A DNA stretch of 64,000 nucleotides from Candidatus Saccharimonadales bacterium (GTDB lineage: Bacteria; Patescibacteriota; Saccharimonadia; Saccharimonadales; DASZAF01), in NCBI GenBank assembly GCA_035480055.1, contig DATIIB010000003.1, forward strand, positions 39,053 through 103,052. Direction: 5' to 3'. The notes beneath the pieces are model-generated. The model worked only from the letters and a program-made list of their open reading frames with translations, had not been told where the DNA came from and did not search any database. A program made the translations under genes and the position numbers. Of this stretch, positions 3,639-64,000 are shown one piece after another (within the stretch, counting starts at the first letter, position 1; every line of letters begins with the position of its first letter).

Positions 3639-5162
3639 ATGGCAACACTCAAAGAACTTCGCGACGAGCGACTTCGAAAGCTCGAAGAACTCAAAACTCT
3701 CGGTATTAATCCATATCCAGCTGAAAGTAATCGCACGCATGTACTGCGGGTGATTCACGACGATTTTGCGCAGCTAGAAGGCTTGGAAGTGAGCGTGACC
3801 GGGCGGATTACTAATATCCGTAAATTTGGCAAAATCGCTTTTGTGGTTATTAAAGACGCAAGCGGCACGCTGCAGCTTTTTTTGGGCGCTGACAAAATGG
3901 AACCACTGCAGGCGATGGATAGCCAAGTGGGATTCGATCAACTTCCACTCCTGGACAGCGGCGATTTTATCGAAGCACATGGGAAGGTTATCAAAACCAA
4001 GACTGACGAAATTTCAGTAGAAGTGGACAAAATCCGCTTGCTGTCCAAGAGCCTGCGACCGCTGCCAGCTTCGCACTCTGGTCTGACGAACAAAGAAGAG
4101 CGCTTACGCCGCCGTTATGTTGATACCAACATCAATCCAGATGTCTATCAGCGGTATATCCGTCGCAGCATGTTTTGGCAGGCCACACGCCACTTTTTGC
4201 TCGATAAAGATTTTATTGAGATTAATATTCCGGTACTCGAAAACACCACTGGTGGCGCAGATGCCACTCCATTTGTGACGCATATGGATGCGCTTGATCA
4301 AGATTTTTACTTGCGCATTAGCCACGAGCTCCCACTCAAACGCCTGCTGGTCGGTGGCTACGAAAAAGTTTTTGATATTGGTCCGCGCTTCCGCAACGAA
4401 AATTATTCCGACGAGCACCTTCCTGAGCATGTGGCCATGGAGTGGTATTGGGCCTATGCCGACTGGGAAATGGGCATGAAGCTCACCGAAGAAATGACTC
4501 GCTATGTGGCGGACAAAACGTGGGGCACGCGCCAATTTAAATTGCTCAATGGTCACGAGATAGACCTTGGCGCCGATGGCCAGGATTGGCCTCGTGTCAG
4601 TTTTGTAGAAGTGATCCGCGAGCACTATGGCATCGATGTATTTAACTGCACGCTCGAAGAAGTGCAAACCAAATTGAAAGAAAATAATCTGGAAGTAGAG
4701 AAGCAGGACAATAAAGCCCGCGGTATCGATAAATTGTGGAAGAAAATTCGGGTGACATTGCCTGGCCCTGCATTCTTAGTGGACATGCCGACCTTTTTGC
4801 AGCCCTTGGCCAAGACTCAGCCCGGTCATCCTGAGCTTACTGAGCAATTTAATATGATTTTGGGCGGCACCGAGGCCTGTAAGGCCTATTCGGAACTGAA
4901 TGATCCCATTGACCAACTACGCCGTTTTAAAGAGCAGCAGGCCATGCGAGACGCCGGCGATGACGAAGCACAGATGCTGGATATCGATTACGTGGAAGCT
5001 TTGGAATACGCGATGCCCCCAGCCTGTGGGTTTGGCTGGAGCGAACGACTTTTTTGGATGTGCGAAGGTGTCACCGCTCGCGAAGGTGTGGTCTTTCCGC
5101 AACTCAGACGCGATATCGACGAAGTAACCAAAGGAATCTATGGACCAGACATCCTCGGGTGA
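3639..5162 (+). CDS. lysS: Lysyl-tRNA synthetase, class II
   Basis: 507 aa with an N-terminal OB anticodon-binding domain and a class II core (FRNE, GGxxAxPF-like motifs). Confidence 0.9.
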   Translation: MATLKELRDERLRKLEELKTLGINPYPAESNRTHVLRVIHDDFAQLEGLEVSVTGRITNIRKFGKIAFVVIKDASGTLQLFLGADKMEPLQAMDSQVGFDQLPLLDSGDFIEAHGKVIKTKTDEISVEVDKIRLLSKSLRPLPASHSGLTNKEERLRRRYVDTNINPDVYQRYIRRSMFWQATRHFLLDKDFIEINIPVLENTTGGADATPFVTHMDALDQDFYLRISHELPLKRLLVGGYEKVFDIGPRFRNENYSDEHLPEHVAMEWYWAYADWEMGMKLTEEMTRYVADKTWGTRQFKLLNGHEIDLGADGQDWPRVSFVEVIREHYGIDVFNCTLEEVQTKLKENNLEVEKQDNKARGIDKLWKKIRVTLPGPAFLVDMPTFLQPLAKTQPGHPELTEQFNMILGGTEACKAYSELNDPIDQLRRFKEQQAMRDAGDDEAQMLDIDYVEALEYAMPPACGFGWSERLFWMCEGVTAREGVVFPQLRRDIDEVTKGIYGPDILG

Positions 5163-24888: not shown

Positions 24889-26100
24889 GTGTTTATGGTT
24901 CATAAAACAGACATATTCCACGCTAAAATTCGAGCTTCCCTCAAGAGAGTAGCAGGGTATAGTGCCTTGGTTATTGCCGCATTAGCAATGATGTGTAGCT
25001 CGACGTTGCCGGTCTACGCCGATCAATACGATGATCAGATTAATGCGCTCAAGCAACAGCAGGCGCAGAGTCAAGCACAGGCCAACCAGCTTGGTGCCCA
25101 AGCAAATGATTTGCAAGGGCAGATTAATGTTCTTGAAAACCAGATTGCTTCGGTCCGCGCTCAGATCGCCGCAAACCAGCAGCGCTATAACGATTTATCA
25201 GGCCAGATTGACGTGGCCAAAAAGGAACTCGCTCATCAGCGCGAAGTCCTTGGTAAAAACATTAAGGCGATGTACATTGAAGGAAAAGTTTCGACCGTTG
25301 AGATGCTTGCCTCGAGTAAAAATATCAGCGAATATCTTGATAAACAGCAGTACCGAAACACCGTAAAAGATAAAATATCAGACACGATTGTTTCTATTAA
25401 AGATCTCGAGAAACAACTCGCCGATCAGCAAGCAGAAGTGGTCAAGCTGCTCGATACGCAAAAGACTTTGCAGGCCGATCTTGCTGCCAAGCAGTCGGAG
25501 GCTGACCAAAAGCTGGCGCAAACTAATCAGGCCAAGTCGCAATTCGACACGCAAGTGGCTGATTTGGCAGCACAAATCGGACAGCTCAAGAGCGCCCAGG
25601 CACAAATGTATGCCAACCTGTCGGCCGGCGGGAGCTCAATCGCTAGCAAAGGTGCGTATGGTTCATTGCAATGGCGCAACAAAACAGCGGGTGTCAACTG
25701 TGGTGGCGGGTATGACTCGCAGCTTTGTAGCGCGTATCCTGATTCGATCATTGATTCCTGGCAGCTCTATAACCGAGAATGTGTCTCGTATGCAGCGTGG
25801 GCTATGCAGTATCGCTTTGGCCACCATGTCTCTGGCTTCCATGGAGCAGGCAACGCCTACCAGTGGCCAGGCACGGTTCCTGCGAATGGCGATGGCTACA
25901 CCGATGAGACCCCAGCTTCTGGCTCAGTCGTCATTATTCCACCTTCGATTATCGGTGGTGTAGGTCACGCAGCAGTTGTGGAGCAGGTGTATGGCGATGG
26001 TTGGATTCGAGTAAGCCAATATAACTTCGACCCGTATGCATATAGCACCATGGACCTCAAGGTTGTCTCTGGGCTGGCGTTCGTGCACTTTACGCATTAG
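24889..26100 (+). CDS. Secreted coiled-coil + CHAP-domain peptidoglycan hydrolase (PcsB-like)
   Basis: Signal peptide (…LPVYA/DQ) followed by ~220 aa of Q/A/L-rich coiled coil. The C-terminal CHAP domain has a catalytic Cys (NRECVSYAAW) and His (GHAAVVE). Alternative ATG start at 24895. Confidence 0.8.
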   Translation: MFMVHKTDIFHAKIRASLKRVAGYSALVIAALAMMCSSTLPVYADQYDDQINALKQQQAQSQAQANQLGAQANDLQGQINVLENQIASVRAQIAANQQRYNDLSGQIDVAKKELAHQREVLGKNIKAMYIEGKVSTVEMLASSKNISEYLDKQQYRNTVKDKISDTIVSIKDLEKQLADQQAEVVKLLDTQKTLQADLAAKQSEADQKLAQTNQAKSQFDTQVADLAAQIGQLKSAQAQMYANLSAGGSSIASKGAYGSLQWRNKTAGVNCGGGYDSQLCSAYPDSIIDSWQLYNRECVSYAAWAMQYRFGHHVSGFHGAGNAYQWPGTVPANGDGYTDETPASGSVVIIPPSIIGGVGHAAVVEQVYGDGWIRVSQYNFDPYAYSTMDLKVVSGLAFVHFTH

Positions 26101-26428
26101 GAACTCCTGGGTTCGCCCTTCAATCCTCCTACGATCCTCCCTTCAGCCCACTCCACAACTCCCACCCGCGGACTGTCCTCCTTGTTGGTAGCAGCGATAT
26201 ATCTGTTGTTTGGAAATGGATAGTCTTAGTATTTTATGTCCGCTCTTCGAGCGGCACATCTAGCCACCACTAATTCTCAAGTTCAAGAATGAACGGGTGA
26301 CACCTGACGGGGCTGCCCCAAAATTGTTTTATGTATTCATAAAAAATTTAGGGGCGGATCAGGTGGCAGGACCCGTGGAGTATGCTGAAGGGTGGAGCGT
26401 GGGAGAGGAGGGGCGGATCAGGGGAGGT
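26101..26428. other. 328-nt structured non-coding region filling the convergent gap between the CHAP hydrolase and femX-like genes; candidate ncRNA or MITE-like element
   Basis: The pyrimidine-rich left arm (26133-26156) is 20/24 complementary to the purine-rich right arm (26375-26398). Contains the core hairpin, a small CCGCTC-TTC-GAGCGG hairpin and two copies of GGGGCGGATCAGG (26351-63, 26410-22). Confidence 0.6.
26291..26380 (+). repeat. Copy 1 of a ~90-nt long-hairpin repeat element
   Basis: 83/90 identical to the reverse complement of 57885-57974. Folds into a ~35-bp imperfect hairpin with an AT-rich apex (GTTTTATG-TATT-CATAAAA). Confidence 0.85.
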
Positions 26429-27427
26429 TTAATGCCGCAATCTAGTTTTAAGAGCTTGCGCCCATTTCCAAGGATGATACAGCGGCTGGAGTGGAATATC
26501 ATACGCGGGTACATACTCGATCACCTCGCCGCCAAAACGCAGCTTAAACTGCGTTACCCCTTGCAGGCCGGGGTAATTTTTGCTGCCAATTCCCAAAAAG
26601 TCGTAGCTCCGTACACCTTCGTCTTTGAGCTGACGCATTATTTCAACGTGAAGAAGATAAGGCGCACTGACTTTCCGAGCTGCCTCATTGCTTGCGCCGT
26701 AGTAATAAATAGCTTGATTATTGAAGACGGTGTCGATGGCCCAGGCGATAGGTGATGCGCCTTCAAAGGCGACAAAAAAGCGCACCGTTCCGTCCAAGGA
26801 TTTGAGCATTGATTGATAGGTGCTGGCCGGGTGGACGTAGAATCCATCGCGCGAGGCAGTCTCGCTGAGAATGGCGTAGTAAGGTGCAAAATCAGCTGCT
26901 GCTTCAAGAGCTGGCACTTCGCGTATGGTAATTCCTGATTTGGCAGCTTTACGCATTCCGCGGCGTGCTCCATAGTCCATTCGCTCCAGGATTGTCTCGA
27001 AGTCGGGCGTCAAATCCACCACGGTTGTTTTTTCGATAAGTGACTTAGAATATGCCGGAAGCCCTTTGGCAGGCGGTTTGGGAAAATGCGCCCGGATGAA
27101 TAATGGCCGCGCAGTGCTTGCTTCCGCAACAACATCACGCAGCGTTTTCGCCACGTCATCGACAATAGCTTGGGTTGGTTCGACCAGCCAGGTGGGACCT
27201 TGATTAAGCCAAATGTAGCTATATCCGCGCATTGTTAATTCAACAGCATTCAAGAGTGCAACTTCTTGTTCGTTTTGACGGATCAAAAAAGTACCAAGAG
27301 ACCGTCGCCCAGGAATCGTGGATTGAAACTCTCCCCAGAGAGGGGATTGCTCAATTGGAAAGCGCGTCTCGGGGTGAGAGTGAATAAGTTTGGTGTACAG
27401 CTCTGCACTAATTTTTTCAGCTCGCAT
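26429..27427 (-). CDS. FemABX-family peptidoglycan-bridge aminoacyltransferase (FemX-like)
   Basis: 332 aa. The C-terminal pattern YYYGASNEAARKVSAPYLLHVEIMRQLKDEGVRSYDFLGIG is typical of the FemAB/lipid II aminoacyltransferase family. An AAGGA SD lies upstream of ATG 27427. Confidence 0.75.
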   Translation of the reverse strand: MRAEKISAELYTKLIHSHPETRFPIEQSPLWGEFQSTIPGRRSLGTFLIRQNEQEVALLNAVELTMRGYSYIWLNQGPTWLVEPTQAIVDDVAKTLRDVVAEASTARPLFIRAHFPKPPAKGLPAYSKSLIEKTTVVDLTPDFETILERMDYGARRGMRKAAKSGITIREVPALEAAADFAPYYAILSETASRDGFYVHPASTYQSMLKSLDGTVRFFVAFEGASPIAWAIDTVFNNQAIYYYGASNEAARKVSAPYLLHVEIMRQLKDEGVRSYDFLGIGSKNYPGLQGVTQFKLRFGGEVIEYVPAYDIPLQPLYHPWKWAQALKTRLRH

Positions 27428-27463
27428 ACAGATTATCCTTACGGCTATCTTTTTGGGTATCAG

Positions 27464-27478
27464 CATGATAATATCATG
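27464..27478. promoter_or_regulatory. Perfect 7-1-7 palindrome CATGATA-A-TATCATG in the femX-like/ctpA divergent promoter region
   Basis: Reads as an extended -10-like TGATAATAT on the + strand and TGATATTAT on the - strand. Possible shared operator or overlapping divergent promoters. Confidence 0.4.
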
Positions 27479-27509
27479 AAAGTAACGACAATCTCTAGAA
27501 GGTGAGTAC

Positions 27510-28727
27510 ATGGGATATATGGCAAGTCAGCAAAAAATGGTGGCAAAGTTAAAAAATTGGGGCCGAAAATCGGTACCCTTTATAATTGTGGCAGTAATTG
27601 CTTTTGGCATGGGCGTCAAGCTAAGTGGCTTCGACCTTACCTCACTTGAAAGAAATAAAAATAGCAAAGCGCCAGCAGACCTTAACTACACGTCTGTCGA
27701 GCAGTTATACGACCGACTGCGCCAAAAGTATGATGGTAACCTCGACGCGGAAAAACTTATCGACGGCATGAAGAAAGGCTTGGTTGAAGCAACTGGCGAC
27801 CCATATACGACCTACTTTACGCCCAAAGAAAGCCAAGACTTCCAGGATTCGCTCGATGGGAAATTCTCTGGTATTGGTGCCGAGCTTGGCAAAAAGGACG
27901 GCCAGTTGGTGGTGGTTTCTCCTCTGGAAGGCTTCCCAGCTCAAAAAGCAGGCGTGAAGACTGGCGATATTATCTTGCAAGTAAATGGCGAAGATGCCAG
28001 CAAATGGAGCGTTGACCAAGCGGTGAGCAAAATCCGCGGTGATAAAGGCACGACAGTTAAAATTCAAGTGGCTCGCGACCAAAAGCCGCTCGAATTTACC
28101 ATCACCCGCGATGACATCACCATTCCAAGCGTGAAGTACGAAGTAACCAGCGACAACATTGGTTATATGCAAATCTCACGCTTTGCCGAAGACACCGGGG
28201 CATTAGCTCAAAAGGCTGCCGATGAATTCAAGAGCAAGAATGTCAAAGGCGTGGTGCTCGATCTTCGCGGTGATGGCGGTGGTTATCTCGACGCAGCAGT
28301 CTCAGTGTCAAGCTTGTGGCTAGACAACGGCCAGACGGTGGTTCAAGAACGCCAGGGCAACAAAGTTGTTGATACTCTGCAGGCAAAGGGCGGCAATGTG
28401 CTCAAGGGATTTCCAACGGTGGTATTGATTGATGGCGGCTCAGCCAGTGCCAGTGAGATTACTGCTGGTGCGCTCCAAGACACCGCCAATGCCAAACTGG
28501 TCGGCGTCAAAAGCTTTGGAAAGGGCAGCGTTCAAGAGTTGCAAAAACTCAACGACGGATCTGAACTCAAGGTGACGGTAGCTCGCTGGTACACACCAAA
28601 AGGTAAAAACATTGACAAAGAAGGTATCTCGCCTGATATTGAAGTCAAGATGAACGACGACGATGTGGCGGCAAATCGGGACCCGCAAAAAGACCGCTCA
28701 TTCTCTTTCATCAATACTAAGCAATAA
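27510..28727 (+). CDS. ctpA: Carboxy-terminal processing (S41) peptidase with PDZ domain
   Basis: N-terminal TM, PDZ domain (GIGAELG...GFPAQKAGVKTGDIIL) and an S41 core (DLRGDGGGYL, GSASASEI, SFGKGSVQ). Confidence 0.85.
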   Translation: MGYMASQQKMVAKLKNWGRKSVPFIIVAVIAFGMGVKLSGFDLTSLERNKNSKAPADLNYTSVEQLYDRLRQKYDGNLDAEKLIDGMKKGLVEATGDPYTTYFTPKESQDFQDSLDGKFSGIGAELGKKDGQLVVVSPLEGFPAQKAGVKTGDIILQVNGEDASKWSVDQAVSKIRGDKGTTVKIQVARDQKPLEFTITRDDITIPSVKYEVTSDNIGYMQISRFAEDTGALAQKAADEFKSKNVKGVVLDLRGDGGGYLDAAVSVSSLWLDNGQTVVQERQGNKVVDTLQAKGGNVLKGFPTVVLIDGGSASASEITAGALQDTANAKLVGVKSFGKGSVQELQKLNDGSELKVTVARWYTPKGKNIDKEGISPDIEVKMNDDDVAANRDPQKDRSFSFINTKQ

Positions 28728-43977: not shown

Positions 43978-44093
43978 CTCAGTCGCGCAACATGCTAGCG
44001 CCTTTCTTGAAAGTACGGCATACTACATAGAGCAAGAGCACACCACGTGTGACTCTTTCTTTTATGCTAAAACTAACAAGGAAATACAGACAC

Positions 44094-45071
44094 ATGGACC
44101 AAGACCAACAGCAGCAACAGCCCTCACTCCATCAACAAGAGACCGATATTTTTGCCTGGGCCGGCCATGTGGAAAGCGCCAGAGACGCCTTGGAAGTGGA
44201 TCTGTATTTGTTTAACAAAAAATACACCGTGTATAGTGCCCATGTTGCGCGCGAGTTAGAACTGCAGCTCAAGCAGCTCTTTCTGTTTGAAATGCTTAAT
44301 TACGTGTCCTCAGGACCTGATCAGGGCATGGTGGTGCGAACTTTTGAGGAAGCCGAAGGTGAAGAGCTGGTGATTCAGCGAACCCAGCTGGCAAATGTGG
44401 AAAACGCGACATATATCTTGCATCAGATTGAAGAACCGGACGAGGAAGTGCAGCTTTTCCGCGATGATGAACATGACTTCAAACGTATCAAAGGTATTGT
44501 GGCGCGTTTTTCGCACCCCAGTATGCCGCGACCGTTTTACGTGGTGAAGCTGGTGCAGCAATCGCAGGTGCTAAAGGGCAAAACGGCTTGGCTGCTGGAT
44601 GGCAACAGCTTTAAGCCATTTACCGCTGATGCCGGTTTTAAAGTTGCGCCAGATAATCAGGTGGTCATTGTGGCAGAGGATATCTTCGTCTTTAATCAAC
44701 GCCGATTTGAAACCCTTTTTGGCTACAATGCCAAGCAACAACTTATTGCCAAGCAAAAGGTGGCCCAGATCGAAAACCTCTACAAGCTGAGCTTTCCAGA
44801 AGGTATGGACCTTAATAGCCTGGTCAAAGACAAAAAAAGCACGATCAAAAAGTTGCAGAACCTTGAAGTTGGCCGCGTTAAGCAAGACGAGCTATTGGAT
44901 CACGCCGAAGAGATGGGCGTGGAGCTCATGACCGACGAAGGCGGAGCGATTATCATCATGGATGGCAAAGATCTGGATAAGTTTGTTAATTTGCTCAACG
45001 ATGATTATGTGGAGTCGGGCTTAACCGGCACTAAGTATGAGATTCGCGGCAAACGAGTGCTTGGCGAATAA
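44094..45071 (+). CDS. Hypothetical protein, possibly DUF4868/KwaB-like
   Basis: 325 aa with a Gln-rich N-terminus. Overall length and sequence style (…DIFVFNQRRFETLFGY…, C-terminal LLNDDYVESGLTGTKY) remind me of DUF4868 proteins. Unverified without an HMM search. AAGGAAA SD upstream of ATG 44094. Confidence 0.35.
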   Translation: MDQDQQQQQPSLHQQETDIFAWAGHVESARDALEVDLYLFNKKYTVYSAHVARELELQLKQLFLFEMLNYVSSGPDQGMVVRTFEEAEGEELVIQRTQLANVENATYILHQIEEPDEEVQLFRDDEHDFKRIKGIVARFSHPSMPRPFYVVKLVQQSQVLKGKTAWLLDGNSFKPFTADAGFKVAPDNQVVIVAEDIFVFNQRRFETLFGYNAKQQLIAKQKVAQIENLYKLSFPEGMDLNSLVKDKKSTIKKLQNLEVGRVKQDELLDHAEEMGVELMTDEGGAIIIMDGKDLDKFVNLLNDDYVESGLTGTKYEIRGKRVLGE

Positions 45072-56128: not shown

Positions 56129-56418
56129 GCGCAAGCAAGCCCTTGTTCATTAACAATTTGGCGACACAAGCAAAGCTTACGGCTCACTCCGAGGTCAGCT
56201 ATCTGGTAGTCAGTGGATGGCAGGTGAACACCATCAAAAGTAACGTTCAAGTACCTTATGCGAAAGCACAATAAAACACCTCCCAAAAAAACTCCACCTC
56301 ACACATAAGTCTCTCAAAAAACACTTAATGGGCTTTTCACTTAGAGATTTTCTTAGTAAAATCTCTCCACTACAACAGCTCCATTACACAAAAACAAAAA
56401 CATTGCACAAAAAACAAA

Positions 56419-56424
56419 TATACT
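56419..56424 (+). promoter_or_regulatory. -10-like TATACT upstream of rsmH (possible internal dcw promoter)
   Basis: 13 nt to GTG 56438 and 25 nt to ATG 56450. Confidence 0.3.
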
Positions 56425-56449
56425 GACTACTAGATAGGTGACCTCGAGA

Positions 56450-57358: not shown

Positions 57359-57361
57359 ATC

Positions 57362-57436
57362 ATGAGACAGACTATCCACGTCAAGATCAAAGACCTTACT
57401 CCAAAAGCTTACGAAGTACTGGTTCGCCAGGGCTAA
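57362..57436 (+). CDS. Possible 24-aa small ORF (MRQTIHVKIKDLTPKAYEVLVRQG)
   Basis: The ATG lies 7 nt after an AAAGGAG SD embedded in the rsmH 3' end. No conservation evidence is available. Confidence 0.15.
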   Translation: MRQTIHVKIKDLTPKAYEVLVRQG

Positions 57437-57447
57437 GCAAGCTTTTC

Positions 57448-57486
57448 GAGACTCACCAGCCACAAAAACAAAGGCTGGTGAGTCTC
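57448..57486 (+). other. Perfect 14-bp hairpin between rsmH and ftsL (not terminator-like)
   Basis: GAGACTCACCAGCC (57448-61), an 11-nt A/C loop, then GGCTGGTGAGTCTC (57473-86). Followed by an A-rich tract rather than a T-tract. Confidence 0.7.
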
Positions 57487-57524
57487 ACCAAAATAAAAAA
57501 TAAAAATAAGAAAGAATTCCACCA

Positions 57525-57860
57525 ATGTCTCAGTATGCTGCTGCAACCATGGAATCTCGCATGTGGCGACGCAACCAAAATACGGTGCGACATCAGATCG
57601 AAAAAGGTGGCCTCGGACCTGTAGCCCACGTAGTGTTAATTGCATTAATGCTGTGTGTGTTGGGCCTGATTTATCTTACGCAAATCACCAAAACAAGTAC
57701 GTACGGCTACGAGATTCAAAAATTACAATCGCAAAAAACTGCCCTTGCAGACCAAAAGCAGGTCTTGCAGGTTGAAGCCGCCAGATTGCAGGCTCTCGAC
57801 CAAGTGAAGAAGGGGAGTGTCGGCATGGTGCAGCCTGCGAATACGGATTACGTGCAGTAG
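57525..57860 (+). CDS. ftsL: Cell division protein FtsL-like (septum formation initiator)
   Basis: 111 aa with a short cytoplasmic tail, one TM and an extracytoplasmic leucine-zipper-like coiled coil. Sits at the canonical dcw position. Confidence 0.7.
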   Translation: MSQYAAATMESRMWRRNQNTVRHQIEKGGLGPVAHVVLIALMLCVLGLIYLTQITKTSTYGYEIQKLQSQKTALADQKQVLQVEAARLQALDQVKKGSVGMVQPANTDYVQ

Positions 57861-57884
57861 ATGTTAAAGATGATCTCCCTCAAC

Positions 57885-57974
57885 CTCCGCGGGTCCTGTC
57901 GCCTGATCCGCCCCTAAATTTTTTATGAATACATAAAACAATTTTGGGGCAGCCCCGTCAGGCACCACCCGCTC
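57885..57974 (-). repeat. Copy 2 of the ~90-nt long-hairpin repeat element (opposite orientation), between ftsL and ftsI
   Basis: The reverse complement aligns base-for-base with 26291-26380. Differences are concentrated in one stem segment and preserve pairing. Confidence 0.85.
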
Positions 57975-58041
57975 GTACCATGTGGAAGACGAGATGTTCG
58001 TAAGCGAAGTCTTGAGGGGAAAATGATAAAATGAAACATAA

Positions 58042-59790: not shown

Positions 59791-59807
59791 GAGGAGCTTC
59801 CAATTTC

Positions 59808-60848
59808 ATGAGTGTCTTTACGACTGAACAGTTTTCCCAAGATGTGGCAACCGGCTTAATACTCGCATTTCTGGGCTTCGCAATCGCCATGGTGCTGACG
59901 CCTTTGTACACGGCGCTGGCTTACCGTTACAAATTCTGGAAAAAACCTCGCAAAACATCGGTCACTGGTGAGACCGCAAAGGTGTTTCAAAAGCTGCACG
60001 CGGCCAAGCATCGCCGTCATATTCCAACCATGGCTGGAGTGGTGACGGTGCTGAGTGTTGGGTCGGTGACCTTTTTGTTTAACTTGGATCGACAGCAAAC
60101 CTGGTTACCATTGGCTGCCATGGCTGGAGCGGCGGCAGTCGGGTTGATCGACGATCTGATTAACATCCGCGGTGTTGGGCAGGGCGTTGCCGGGCTTAAC
60201 TCCAAAATTAAATTTTTGCTCATTACCTTGGTTGCCTTGGCTGGCGGCTGGTACTTCTTTTACAAGCTTGGCTACGATGCGATCCACATTCCGTTTGTTG
60301 GCAACTGGCAGCTTGGAATGTGGCTGATTCCGATCTTTGCCTTTGTGATCGTGGCTACAGCTAACGCGGTAAATATCAGTGATGGTTTGGACGGTCTGGC
60401 CGGTGGTTTGCTGACCATTGCTTTTGCAGTTTATGGGATGATTGCCTTTTTGCAAGACAACATTGGCATTGCCGGCTTCTGCGTGACGCTGGTAGGCGCG
60501 TTGCTCGCGTATGTGTGGTTCAATATTTATCCGGCGCGTTTCTTTATGGGCGACGTGGGGTCGTTTGCATTAGGAACGGCCTTGGGCGTGGTGGCCATGC
60601 TCACCAATACTTTGGCTTTGCTGCCGATTATCGGTTTGGTCTTTGTGGCCGAAGCGGGTTCAGCTTTGATTCAAATTCTGTCCAAAAAGATTCTGCACCG
60701 TAAGATCTTTTTATCAGCACCGATTCATCACCATCTTGAGGCGCTGGGCTGGCCGGAGACCAAAGTGACTATGCGCTTTTGGGTAATCGGTGCCGTTTCG
60801 GGTGTGCTGGGTCTGATCATTGCTCTGGTGGGAGGGCATATTATCTGA
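59808..60848 (+). CDS. mraY: Phospho-N-acetylmuramoyl-pentapeptide transferase
   Basis: 10-TM protein with NAVNISDGLDGLA, MGDVGS and HHH.E motifs. Confidence 0.9.
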   Translation: MSVFTTEQFSQDVATGLILAFLGFAIAMVLTPLYTALAYRYKFWKKPRKTSVTGETAKVFQKLHAAKHRRHIPTMAGVVTVLSVGSVTFLFNLDRQQTWLPLAAMAGAAAVGLIDDLINIRGVGQGVAGLNSKIKFLLITLVALAGGWYFFYKLGYDAIHIPFVGNWQLGMWLIPIFAFVIVATANAVNISDGLDGLAGGLLTIAFAVYGMIAFLQDNIGIAGFCVTLVGALLAYVWFNIYPARFFMGDVGSFALGTALGVVAMLTNTLALLPIIGLVFVAEAGSALIQILSKKILHRKIFLSAPIHHHLEALGWPETKVTMRFWVIGAVSGVLGLIIALVGGHII

Positions 60849-62074: not shown

Positions 62075-63203
62075 AGCCCTTTCTCAGACACAGCCGGATC
62101 TGCAGATCTGTTTTGTGTGTGACAAAAAATTTGCACCACAAGCGCGGACGATTTTGGCGCGTTCGAGTTTACCGATCACCCTAAAAACGGTGCAAGCTGG
62201 CAAGCTTCGTCGTTACTATGGAGTTCCGTTGTGGAAACAGTTACTGGATATTCCTACAGTTCTGCTGAATATCCGCGACAGTTTTTTGATTGGTATAGGC
62301 TTGGTGCAGAGCTTTTTGCTCCTCGGAAAGTTCAAGCCCGCGGTGGTATTCGGCAAAGGTGGCTTTGTCTGCTTGCCCGTGGGCATTGCGACGCATTGGC
62401 GAAAAATTCCATTGGTTATTCATGATTCCGACGCGCACCCCGGGCTGACTAATCGAGTGCTGGCCAAATGGGCAACCGCCATTGCTACTGGCACGCCGCT
62501 CGAGAATTACAATTATGACCGAACGAGAAGCAAGTATGTGGGCGTTCCGGTGGCAACTCAATTCCAACCGCCAACTCCAGAGGAGCAAGCCGCGCTCAAG
62601 AAAAAATATGTGAGCGATCCAACGCATCGTTTAGTAACCATGGTCGGTGGCGGTCTTGGTGCAGGTTCACTCAACAAAGCCATGCTGGCGATTGCTCCTA
62701 CCCTTGTTAAAGAAGGTGTGGAGGTTATTATGGTCACGGGAACGCTGCATGGTGACGCAGTTACTGCCGAATTGCAGCAGGTGCTCAAAGATCCAGCCGA
62801 TCAACGCATGTATCATGTCGAACCGTTTGTAGATGCTGAGAAGATGGCTGATATACTTGCCGCGGCCGATGCTGTGGTGAGCCGGGGTGGGGCAACAGCG
62901 ATGGCGGAGTTGAGCGCGCTTGGCAAAGCAACGGTGTTGGTGCCAAGTCCGCACCTTACCGGTGGGCAACAACTCAAGAATGCCAAGGCTTTTGAAGAGG
63001 CGGGCGCGGTCGTATTGGTCGAAGATACCAAGCTGCAAAAGAATAGTACAATTTTAGAACACGCTTTATTATGGATTCTCAAGAATCCCGCCACTCAAAA
63101 GACCTTGCAGACACATATTCTTACTTTTGCCAAACCGCAGGCGGCGAAAGAAGTAGCTGAGATGATAATCGAAGCAGCAGGGCAGGGGAGAAGCGAGCGA
63201 TGA
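62010..63203 (+). CDS. murG: UDP-N-acetylglucosamine--N-acetylmuramyl-(pentapeptide) pyrophosphoryl-undecaprenol GlcNAc transferase
   Basis: MRILVAGGGSGGHVTPVLAI N-terminus and C-terminal VSRGGATAMAEL. GGAGGAGG SD. Overlaps the ftsW end by 65 nt. Confidence 0.9.
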   Translation: MRILVAGGGSGGHVTPVLAILEALSQTQPDLQICFVCDKKFAPQARTILARSSLPITLKTVQAGKLRRYYGVPLWKQLLDIPTVLLNIRDSFLIGIGLVQSFLLLGKFKPAVVFGKGGFVCLPVGIATHWRKIPLVIHDSDAHPGLTNRVLAKWATAIATGTPLENYNYDRTRSKYVGVPVATQFQPPTPEEQAALKKKYVSDPTHRLVTMVGGGLGAGSLNKAMLAIAPTLVKEGVEVIMVTGTLHGDAVTAELQQVLKDPADQRMYHVEPFVDAEKMADILAAADAVVSRGGATAMAELSALGKATVLVPSPHLTGGQQLKNAKAFEEAGAVVLVEDTKLQKNSTILEHALLWILKNPATQKTLQTHILTFAKPQAAKEVAEMIIEAAGQGRSER

Positions 63204-64000
63204 AGCTACTTGGGAGGCGTAAAAAAGAGGTGCCGCCGCGAAGGCGGGCAGCGAGCGTACGACTTGAAGACGAGAGTAATAAATTCCGTCGTAGCGCCAC
63301 GTTAACCGGAAGCTTGTCTGATGATGTTCGAGCTGGCGCTGAAGAACGCGCCCAATTACAGACCGCTCGCACAGAAGCTCAAGCGAAGCGAAAAAAACAA
63401 CGACGCTTTGTGCGTCGATTGATTACGGCAGGCATTTTTGGTCTGCTACTGTTGGCACTTGCGATGAATTTGGTGCGTACTTCTACGGTGACGTATGCTG
63501 GACATCCAAGCCACTTACCCAGCACTACGCCGTATAGTACCTCTGCTAAGGAGTTTACTGGAAGCAGCTTGGGTAATCGCCTGGTGCTTACCATTAACAC
63601 CGCCAAGCTCGGCGCCTATATCATGCAGCAGCACAAGGAAGTCGCCAGTGTGCAGGTGGACCGTCGGGTATTCCATAGTACGCTTGATATTACGGTCACT
63701 TTGCGCAAGCCAGTACTTATCTGGCAGACCACGCACGATGCGCAGGCCTTTTATGTTGACGCGAACGGGACAAGTTTTAGCGTAAATGCCTATGGCAATG
63801 ATCAGCAGTTGGTGCATGTGAACGACGAAAGCGGCGTGCCCGCGGAACTTGGCGTTCCGGTGGCATCCAGTCGGCAGATTAGCTTTTTGGGACAGTTCGT
63901 CGGGCAACTCGCCCAGTCTTCGCAGAACAAACTGCAGGTGACGAAGATTGTGTTTCCATCCTCATCCACCAAAGAGATCGACGTCTATATTACCGGACGC
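63200..64000 (+). CDS. ftsQ: Cell division protein FtsQ-like (POTRA domain), 3' end beyond window
   Basis: My own translation is open from ATG 63200 to the window end (267 codons). Basic N-terminus, one TM and a POTRA-like segment VASVQVDRRVFHSTLDITVTLRKPVLIWQT...FYVDANG. ATGA overlap with murG. Not in the ORF track because there is no stop in the window. Confidence 0.7.
   Translation, partial: MKLLGRRKKEVPPRRRAASVRLEDESNKFRRSATLTGSLSDDVRAGAEERAQLQTARTEAQAKRKKQRRFVRRLITAGIFGLLLLALAMNLVRTSTVTYAGHPSHLPSTTPYSTSAKEFTGSSLGNRLVLTINTAKLGAYIMQQHKEVASVQVDRRVFHSTLDITVTLRKPVLIWQTTHDAQAFYVDANGTSFSVNAYGNDQQLVHVNDESGVPAELGVPVASSRQISFLGQFVGQLAQSSQNKLQVTKIVFPSSSTKEIDVYITGR

Follow-up and report, generated by a model that had tools for sequence, protein, structure and literature searches.

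The gap between two convergent genes in a 64,000-nt stretch of DNA (the window), from a Candidatus Saccharimonadales-type metagenome-assembled genome (Saccharibacteria/TM7 group), carries one copy of a small, previously undescribed Saccharimonadales family of conserved hairpin elements. As a first-pass annotation of the sequence had stated, the gap (26101-26428) runs from the stop codon of an open reading frame (ORF) for a CHAP-domain hydrolase (24889..26100, + strand) to the stop codon of a FemAB-family transferase, femX (26429..27511, - strand). The CHAP gene is the last in an ftsE-ftsX-CHAP row. The window corresponds to positions 37351-101350 of contig CAYZNG010000003.1 in assembly GCA_964479845.1. 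The core of the gap, a hairpin of about 85 nt, is a real and undescribed structured element, either an RNA motif or a small palindromic repeat, because it recurs in relatives at the same two gene junctions, CHAP/femX and ftsL/ftsI, the two sides of its stems having changed in concert.

A conserved core hairpin at two gene junctions

Orthologous junctions were fetched from relatives via homologues of FemX and FtsI, with protein identities of 57-73%. The closest femX homologue found in the GTDB species representatives was only 40% identical, and those loci were of little use. Three covariance models were built: R1 from the two window cores only, R3 from the window copies and the L022 sequence but without L036, and R2 from four sequences. 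R1 matched L022 at 4156-4259 (34.5 bits, E about 1e-5), inside the orthologous femX/CHAP gap, and L036 at 2336-2443 (17 bits), inside the ftsL/ftsI gap. R3 matched L036 at 2352-2435 with 41.3 bits (E 5e-7), inside the orthologous ftsL/ftsI gap, and its best unrelated match in 93 kb, a terminator hairpin, scored 18.6 bits.

The four instances (two in the window, L022 and L036), each folded alone, take the same shape. From the base upwards, this comprises a 6-bp basal helix, an internal loop (5' GR, 3' RCAGG, or ACGAG in L036) and a 7-8-bp helix, followed by a G-rich 5' bulge and an A/U-rich apical helix of ~20 bp, which has one bulged base and is closed by a tetraloop (UAUU, CUUG, CUUG). The single-stranded G-rich loop motifs (GG / ACAGG and the GGG bulge) are conserved. 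The basal helices of the instances read ACGGGT:ACCCGT, GCGGGT:ACCCGC, ACGGGT:GGCCGT and CTGAGT:GCTCAG. A structural alignment made by hand (A7) had 92% of its cells paired, with both sides changed in 17 of 34 pairs, a result matched by none of 500 shuffles; sliding the 3' partner by 1-3 columns as a control left only 2-6 both-sided changes. Conserved secondary structure with compensatory changes in independent lineages, the generic mark of a structured RNA, was thus seen both as covariation in A7 and in the agreement of independent folds. The apical helix is entirely different between lineages, yet identical in the two window copies (61/61).

Model R2 detected no further copies in the 64-kb window, in another 9 kb of its contig or in ~29 kb of the L022 genome, nor in L003, L005, L023 or L038 (~130 kb in total from these genomes). 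The source contig thus has two copies over 73 kb, and the L022 genome one over ~29 kb. Neither R2 nor R3 recognised the hairpins in L003, L005 and L038, which were kept out of the family, and matches in L012 and L019 proved to be ordinary extended terminator hairpins.

The first-pass annotation had proposed a composite unit of 180-330 nt, in which complementary arms enclose the core. Such a unit is present in the window; related genomes conserve only the ~85-nt core hairpin. The arms in L022 are unrelated in sequence, and in L036, where the core orientation was not folded, no long arms were evident.

The gap folds as one closed structure

The comparison with shuffled sequences that had been suggested as a check placed the fold far beyond chance: on the + strand the gap reached -152.5 kcal/mol, against -108.2 ± 4.7 kcal/mol for shuffles (z -9.45). 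The - strand reached -137.4 kcal/mol (z -6.9). The fold is one closed structure, whose pairing starts 3 nt past the CHAP stop and ends 2 nt short of the femX stop, and the gap is a clear structural outlier among all window gaps of at least 80 nt. That ranking included four stretches that are coding (mraY, murG and surroundings: 59791-60104, 60456-60778, 62075-62240 and 63039-63514), and is unaffected by them.

Most of what the first reading had said of the internal layout was borne out. Pyrimidines make up 73% of the left arm (26104-26170) and purines 75% of the right arm (26364-26426), compared with 52% purine in the window, and the CCTCC/CTCCAC motifs on the left and GGAGG/GTGGAG motifs on the right are located as it had placed them. 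Segment 26133-26156 is complementary to 26375-26398 at 20 of 24 positions, as reported; these segments lie within a 31-nt inverted repeat (84% complementary), which itself belongs to the 47-bp outer helix formed by the two arms (Table 1). Mismatches in this outer helix are balanced (4 G.T versus 5 A.C). A small hairpin, CCGCTC-TTC-GAGCGG, was confirmed at 26240-26254, and a reported duplicated 13-mer turned out to be an exact 14-mer, AGGGGCGGATCAGG, at 26350-63 and 26409-22. A direct repeat of at least 14 nt arose in none of 2000 shuffles, where the maximum was 12 nt.

What did not hold was the suggestion that the left half of the core could pair with either copy of this repeat in mutually exclusive folds. 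Forcing it onto the distal 14-mer gave -88.7 kcal/mol, compared with -152.5 kcal/mol, and an ensemble probability of 0. This cost of ~64 kcal/mol, with the zero ensemble probability, excludes alternative pairing via the duplicated repeat in the full-length strand, and a riboswitch-like switch working through it was rejected. The distal 14-mer pairs with the outer left arm, at 26108-26121.

Two copies of the composite element in the window

Table 1. Coordinates of the parts of both window copies of the element.
Feature	Position	Strand	Remarks
Core hairpin, copy 1	26293..26376	+	R2 71.8 bits; folds alone at -40.2 kcal/mol, z -5.2
Lower core, copy 1		+	6-bp basal helix ACGGGT:ACCCGT; internal loop (5' GA, 3' GCAGG); 7-bp helix CACCTGA:TCAGGTG
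Upper core, copy 1		+	CGGGG bulge; ~20-bp apical helix (G26326 bulged; tip A/T-rich); TATT loop
Pyrimidine-rich left arm, copy 1	26104..26162	+	47-bp helix with 26369-26426; from inverted repeat and composition
Left-arm stretch, copy 1	26139-26156	+	CCCTTCAGC..ACTCCAC; corresponds to left arm of copy 2
Purine-rich right arm, copy 1	26369..26426	+	Inner end, to 26376, overlaps the core; contains the distal 14-mer
Spacer, copy 1	26163..26292	+	On 5' side of rod; holds the small hairpin; no counterpart on 3' side
Proximal 14-mer, copy 1	26350..26363	+	3' strand of lower core helices
Distal 14-mer, copy 1	26409..26422	+	In outermost helix CTCCTGGGTTCGCCC:GGGGCGGATCAGGGGAG, which resembles the lower core helices
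Core hairpin, copy 2	57889..57972	-	R2 73.1 bits; 61/61 central bases identical to copy 1
Composite, copy 2	57874..58020	-	z -3.7; 33-nt spacer with small hairpin; core
Left arm, copy 2	58020-58004	-	TCCCCTCAAGACTTCGC
Right arm, copy 2	57890-57874	-	GCGGAGGTTGAGGGAGA

Copy 2 lies between an ftsL-like gene (57525..57860) and ftsI, encoding a penicillin-binding protein (from 58042 or 58078), and is antisense to the dcw operon. This second element, at 57.9 kb on the minus strand, had been said to have the same order of parts as the first, namely pyrimidine arm, spacer with small hairpin, core and purine arm, and we found the same. The two copies are 31.5 kb apart, inverted relative to each other, and form the sole long dispersed repeat in the window (26291-26380 versus 57885-57974, 92% identical). 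With nhmmer the homology stretches to ~100 nt, and this shared repeat extends to 26386 in copy 1.

The copies differ by compensating changes in the core helix (CACCTGA:TCAGGTG in copy 1 versus TGCCTGA:TCAGGCG in copy 2) and in a basal pair (A-T versus G-C). Their arms are ~70% alike, compared with 100% for the core. Corresponding arm helices read ACTCCAC:GTGGAGT versus CTTCGC:GCGGAG, and CCCTTCAGC:GCTGAAGGG versus CCCTCAA:TTGAGGG, and among the differences one A-T pair has become G-C, one G-C pair has become A-T and one T-A pair is lost entirely. The spacers are unrelated in sequence, that of copy 1 being ~100 nt longer (~130 versus 33 nt). Copy 1 may be nested, its outermost helix being what is left of an older copy around the present one.

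Two side observations concern the repeat itself. Position 26376 (T in copy 1, C in copy 2) takes part in a three-way covariation with 26155 and 26293, and likewise at the equivalent positions of copy 2: it can pair with either the basal-helix purine or the left-arm purine, and both purines change alongside. The 2-nt 'RC' is thus duplicated, once on each side of the spacer. In addition, short-read Logan contigs of the same organism stop inside the repeat, L001 and L002 at window position 26356 and L035 at 57933. The end of L035 coincides exactly with the break expected of a k=31 graph at an exact repeat of 61 nt. Those of L001 and L002 fall 22 nt short of the expected break point, and this early stop implies another sequence context for 26356-26385 in those samples.

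Position, orientation and transcription signals

All four instances end 20-52 nt beyond a stop codon, that of femX in the window, ftsL in the window and L036, and CHAP in L022. The orientation is fixed relative to the gene with this stop codon, whose sense strand is the reverse complement of the core strand. The core strand, which has the G-rich loops, folds better than its complement in four of four instances (by 4.2, 2.5, 0.8 and 8.5 kcal/mol).

No promoter-like or terminator-like sites were found within the element, and a terminator-like site was present neither in 26101-26428 nor in the L022 gap. Directly after the hairpin there is no U-tract on either strand, as an intrinsic terminator would have; the 3' flank reads GGCAGGACCC.

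The first-pass annotation called the gap unusually long. It is long but not unique, as the window also has gaps of 340, 414 and 309 nt. The annotation also saw no plausible ORF there: three mechanical ORFs of 51-152 aa do overlap the gap, and none has support. A small protein, or an in-frame insertion resembling a Rickettsia palindromic element, was rejected: one frame through the core is open (PDGAAPKLFYVFIKNLGADQ), and its peptide has no match among 5.8 billion proteins. At 26423-26755 (+) a GGAGG is followed 5 nt later by an ATG (26433), opening a 107-codon frame antisense to femX that is probably spurious.

Orthologous gaps that lack or vary the core

No sequence in the CHAP/femX gaps of relatives could be aligned with the window gap. 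These gaps measure 310 nt in L003 (z -9.35), which has a canonical bidirectional terminator, 160 nt in L005 (5003-5162; z -12.5) and 252 nt in L022 (z -2.3). The L005 gap has a perfect 29-bp closing stem around a terminator-like hairpin, and both convergent mRNAs would therefore end in the same 29-nt sequence. By eye, its inner hairpin is flanked by A5 and U5 and resembles a bidirectional terminator, which a simple scan had missed.

The ftsL/ftsI gap measures 181-217 nt in the window, 169 nt in L036, 268 nt in L038 and 20 nt in L041, which comes from the same contig as L022. Presence/absence polymorphism was therefore observed at the orthologous ftsL/ftsI site, although loss of a resident element would look alike. 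The L038 gap (2233-2500) consists of a 268-nt pyrimidine/purine hairpin (z -6.7 to -8.1) with the internal repeats GTCATCCTG and TGTCATGCTGAGC.

Searches of known families and sequence collections

Rfam 15 gave no match at gathering score anywhere in the window. With E values of up to 10, it returned only hairpins of the microRNA-precursor type, at 15-25 bits against gathering scores of 47-136. No tRNA or tmRNA was found. The core was absent, by exact pattern, from viral contigs, GTDB genomes and JGI metagenomes; a gapped core pattern had nine matches, all due to chance and in high-G+C DNA. The gap had no blastn match among plasmids and phages. The ~55 window proteins scanned included none with a transposase, Y1/RAYT, integrase or reverse-transcriptase domain.

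Target-site duplications at the outer borders, which had been proposed as a sign of transposition, were not visible: there is no convincing direct repeat at 26104/26426, 26139/26392 or 57874/58020, and all that the two ends of copy 2 have in common nearby is a 4-nt ATGA. Nor is there a conserved GTAG/CGTC tag; GACG/CGTC is placed differently in the window copies, L022 and L036, and no GTAG stands at the foot of the hairpin.

Several specific candidates were rejected. A dif/Xer site was dismissed by eye (wrong half-site arrangement, and two copies), and a kink-turn in the 2x5 internal loop by the absence of tandem G.A pairs. Signal recognition particle RNA and 6S RNA had no model match, and there are two copies. 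The differences between the copies are not adenine-specific, as those of a template/variable repeat pair in a diversity-generating retroelement would be.

Other structured gaps nearby

Two further gaps are structured. The mraW/ftsL gap (window 57359-57524; L036 1833-1995; L038 1731-1896; L041 9482-9677) has a conserved box, GAC..TTACTCCA, and an 11-14-bp hairpin with compensating changes (window 57448-57493), then an A-rich tail. Its sense-strand z was -6.7 to -8.4 in the three genomes folded, L041 being aligned only, and it had no Rfam match. It may be a second undescribed RNA motif of the dcw operon. The mraZ/mraW gap (window 56129-56437; L040 3976-4296; L036 608-923; L038 513-824), of ~312-321 nt, is structured on the sense strand in three genomes (z -5.5 to -6.3). 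Just past the right end of the window, a 641-nt convergent gap before a gene for a TrwB/DUF87-type ATPase (L040 11995-12635) has no unusual structure (z about +1). Elsewhere in the window, 44049-45071 (+) encodes a protein with a KwaB-like domain (Kiwa defence system; E 1e-13).

What the element may be

What kind of element has these properties? The explanation that we favour, tentatively and short of calling it probable, is a locus-bound element that acts as a single-stranded hairpin, most likely of RNA, just behind the stop codons of cell-envelope genes. We prefer an inherited, folded single strand because the shape is kept while the stems change, the loop bases are conserved, and the element occupies only two syntenic junctions, beside genes for the cell envelope and division. 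On this explanation the ~85-nt rod, lengthened in this genome by the complementary pyrimidine-rich and purine-rich arms, would have been inherited at the fixed CHAP/femX and ftsL/ftsI junctions. From its place 20-52 nt behind a stop codon, the hairpin could delimit, insulate or process transcripts. It would replace a terminator in the convergent CHAP/femX gap, and be a processing or attenuation site between ftsL and ftsI. Gene conversion would keep the central 61 nt of the two window copies identical: the apical helix is identical in copies whose flanking helices have already diverged by compensating changes, and this sequence pattern points to gene conversion between paralogues rather than to recent transposition.

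A more specific version, doubtful in our view, is a functional, Saccharimonadales-specific RNA that serves as a mark on transcripts for FtsL/FtsI and for FemX or the FtsEX-associated CHAP hydrolase. Whether as a cis element that a single RNA-binding protein or nuclease recognises, or as a cis-antisense RNA, it would link septation to the remodelling of peptidoglycan in these ultra-small episymbionts. Both paralogous copies would then co-evolve with their partner.

Several points weigh against a locus-bound RNA hairpin. The comparison covers only three independent lineages, and A7 was fitted to the structure by hand. Template switching at quasi-palindromes can yield 'compensatory' changes without selection. 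The strand is ambiguous, as the better-folding strand is not the one sense to the adjacent gene, and the balanced G.T and A.C mismatches of the outer helix carry no strand-specific RNA signal. The window and L022 elements are mirror images relative to their flanking genes, and the element is missing from the 20-nt ftsL/ftsI gap of L041; both fit a mobile or dispensable element. That RNA is the active form is our inference.

A possible, though not a likely, alternative is a non-autonomous mobile palindromic repeat of the REPIN/ERIC/Correia kind (CREE, resembling the MITEs, or miniature inverted-repeat transposable elements), which would copy itself into hairpin-rich intergenic sites and affect transcripts only incidentally. 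It would account for the two near-identical, inverted copies 31.5 kb apart, for the breaking of assembly contigs inside the element, and for the differing orientation in the window and L022 and the empty ftsL/ftsI site of one relative. The duplicated 14-mer and the core-like outermost helix could reflect a copy nested in an older one, and the unrelated long hairpins at the same junctions in other relatives, including the perfect 29-bp inverted repeat, suggest turnover. Against it, copies were seen at just two syntenic junctions, shared by the three lineages, in ~130 kb from these genomes, and the core was absent from the viral, genome, metagenome, plasmid and phage collections searched. Neither copy has a visible target-site duplication, and the conserved GTAG/CGTC tag is absent. 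The termini are the least conserved part, whereas those of MITEs are normally the best conserved, and the ~55 scanned window proteins lack a transposase, Y1/RAYT, integrase or reverse-transcriptase domain. The original choice between a non-coding RNA and a MITE-like element still stands in that either may apply, while a MITE with long terminal inverted repeats is unsupported by the target sites, the termini, the two syntenic sites and the ~55 proteins.

We think it unlikely that the core strand is independently transcribed as a small RNA whose 3' part, antisense to the end of femX, CHAP or ftsL, regulates cell-envelope and division genes. In its favour, the complement folds less well than the core orientation in all four instances, conservation extends to the single-stranded G-rich loop motifs, and the 3' end of the core is always 20-52 nt from the stop codon of the opposite-strand gene. 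No promoter-like site, however, was found upstream of any copy in the core orientation, and a nearly fully paired rod of 85 nt leaves little free sequence for pairing with a target. Downstream of copy 2, a terminator-like hairpin with a T-run (minus strand, 57761-57739) would suit such a transcript, but it has no counterpart in L036 and is within chance expectation.

It is more improbable still that the element works as DNA, as a cruciform or single-stranded hairpin for protein binding or recombination, for example at the ends of an invertible 31.5-kb segment or as an attC/Xer-like site. The copies are indeed mutually inverted, both strands fold well, the mismatch types of the outer helix are strand-symmetric and the layout is loosely attC-like. 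But femX and ftsI are ~30 kb apart in the same relative orientation both in the window and in the L022/L041 contig, so that no inversion between the copies is seen. The attC core sites GTTRRRY/RYYYAAC are absent, as are a cassette array and an integrase, and the A/T-rich palindrome TTATG-N4-CATAA, present in two copies, does not have the dif arrangement. The copies also lie on opposite replication strands, as judged from a monotonic GC skew, which argues against a hairpin of the lagging-strand template only.

The notion that the element has no specific role, being a long, fast-evolving terminator hairpin whose likeness to relatives is generic, is barely credible: relatives do have different long hairpins at the same junctions, the hairpin models also catch terminator-like hairpins at 17-19 bits and the sole Rfam matches are generic microRNA-precursor hairpins, but L022 and L036 scored 34.5 and 41.3 bits with models built without them, against a background of 13.8-18.6 bits, the instances have loop motifs, bulge position and helix lengths in common, and a U-tract after the hairpin is absent on both strands.

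If the element is a real RNA motif, it would be a lineage-specific regulatory feature on cell-division and peptidoglycan genes, in bacteria about whose growth control little is understood. Should it prove a palindromic repeat instead, it would show REPIN/ERIC-type elements persisting even in genomes of ~1 Mb. Either way, it breaks short-read assemblies at both loci, and a covariance model for finding more copies has now been built. To our knowledge, very little is known about the non-coding RNAs or repeat elements of Saccharibacteria and other Patescibacteria (the candidate phyla radiation); a targeted literature search on these topics returned nothing relevant.

Comparison with known systems

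REPINs are REP doublets that form hairpins and are mobilised by RAYT transposases; their proposed host roles include mRNA stabilisation and termination, and they normally exist as populations of tens to hundreds at non-syntenic sites (PMC3116915, PMC3733652). Like them, the element is a bulged intergenic hairpin of ~100 nt, found in either orientation, near-identical within a genome and different between genomes. Unlike them, it lacks a conserved GTAG/CGTC tag, the scan of window proteins (~64 kb of genome) gave no RAYT, and only two copies are present in 73 kb, at junctions that are occupied in relatives too.

Correia elements of Neisseria (CREE/NEMIS) are 100-150 bp long, with inverted-repeat arms around a conserved core. 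They are co-transcribed with their neighbours, in operons and at gene ends, as a long RNA hairpin open to cleavage or protection by RNase III. They number in the hundreds, with 26-bp terminal repeats that are well conserved, an IHF site and a duplicated TA target (PMC2649163, PMC2229807). Our element shares the inverted-repeat arms around a conserved core and the location inside an operon and at gene ends. It differs in its termini, where conservation is lowest, in having no visible duplication and in a copy number that appears very low.

The ERIC (or IRU) sequences of enterobacteria are imperfect palindromes of ~127 bp with a highly conserved central inverted repeat. They occupy transcribed intergenic regions in either orientation, with copies scattered over many loci, and variants carry internal insertions at fixed points. 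Such insertions are comparable to the 33-nt and ~130-nt spacers of the window copies. There is no sequence relationship, and the phylum is different.

Integron attC sites also conserve structure and not sequence: a basal helix and an unpaired spacer are followed by a second helix, which has extrahelical bases, and by a terminal stem that varies. Within a genome, chromosomal attC arrays are homogeneous. The element likewise conserves structure over sequence and has a similar layout of helix, spacer and stem. It lacks R'/R'' sites (GTTRRRY/RYYYAAC), a cassette array and an integrase, and copy 2 is inside the dcw operon.

Intrinsic terminators, finally, differ from the element in having flanking U- or A-tracts; its base is G+C-rich and its tip A/U-rich. 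The second copy, between the co-transcribed ftsL and ftsI, also sets it apart from the terminators of convergent gene pairs. Like bidirectional intrinsic terminators, however, the element forms a stable hairpin soon after convergent stop codons, and in both core-carrying CHAP/femX gaps (window and L022) it stands where no other terminator-like site is present.

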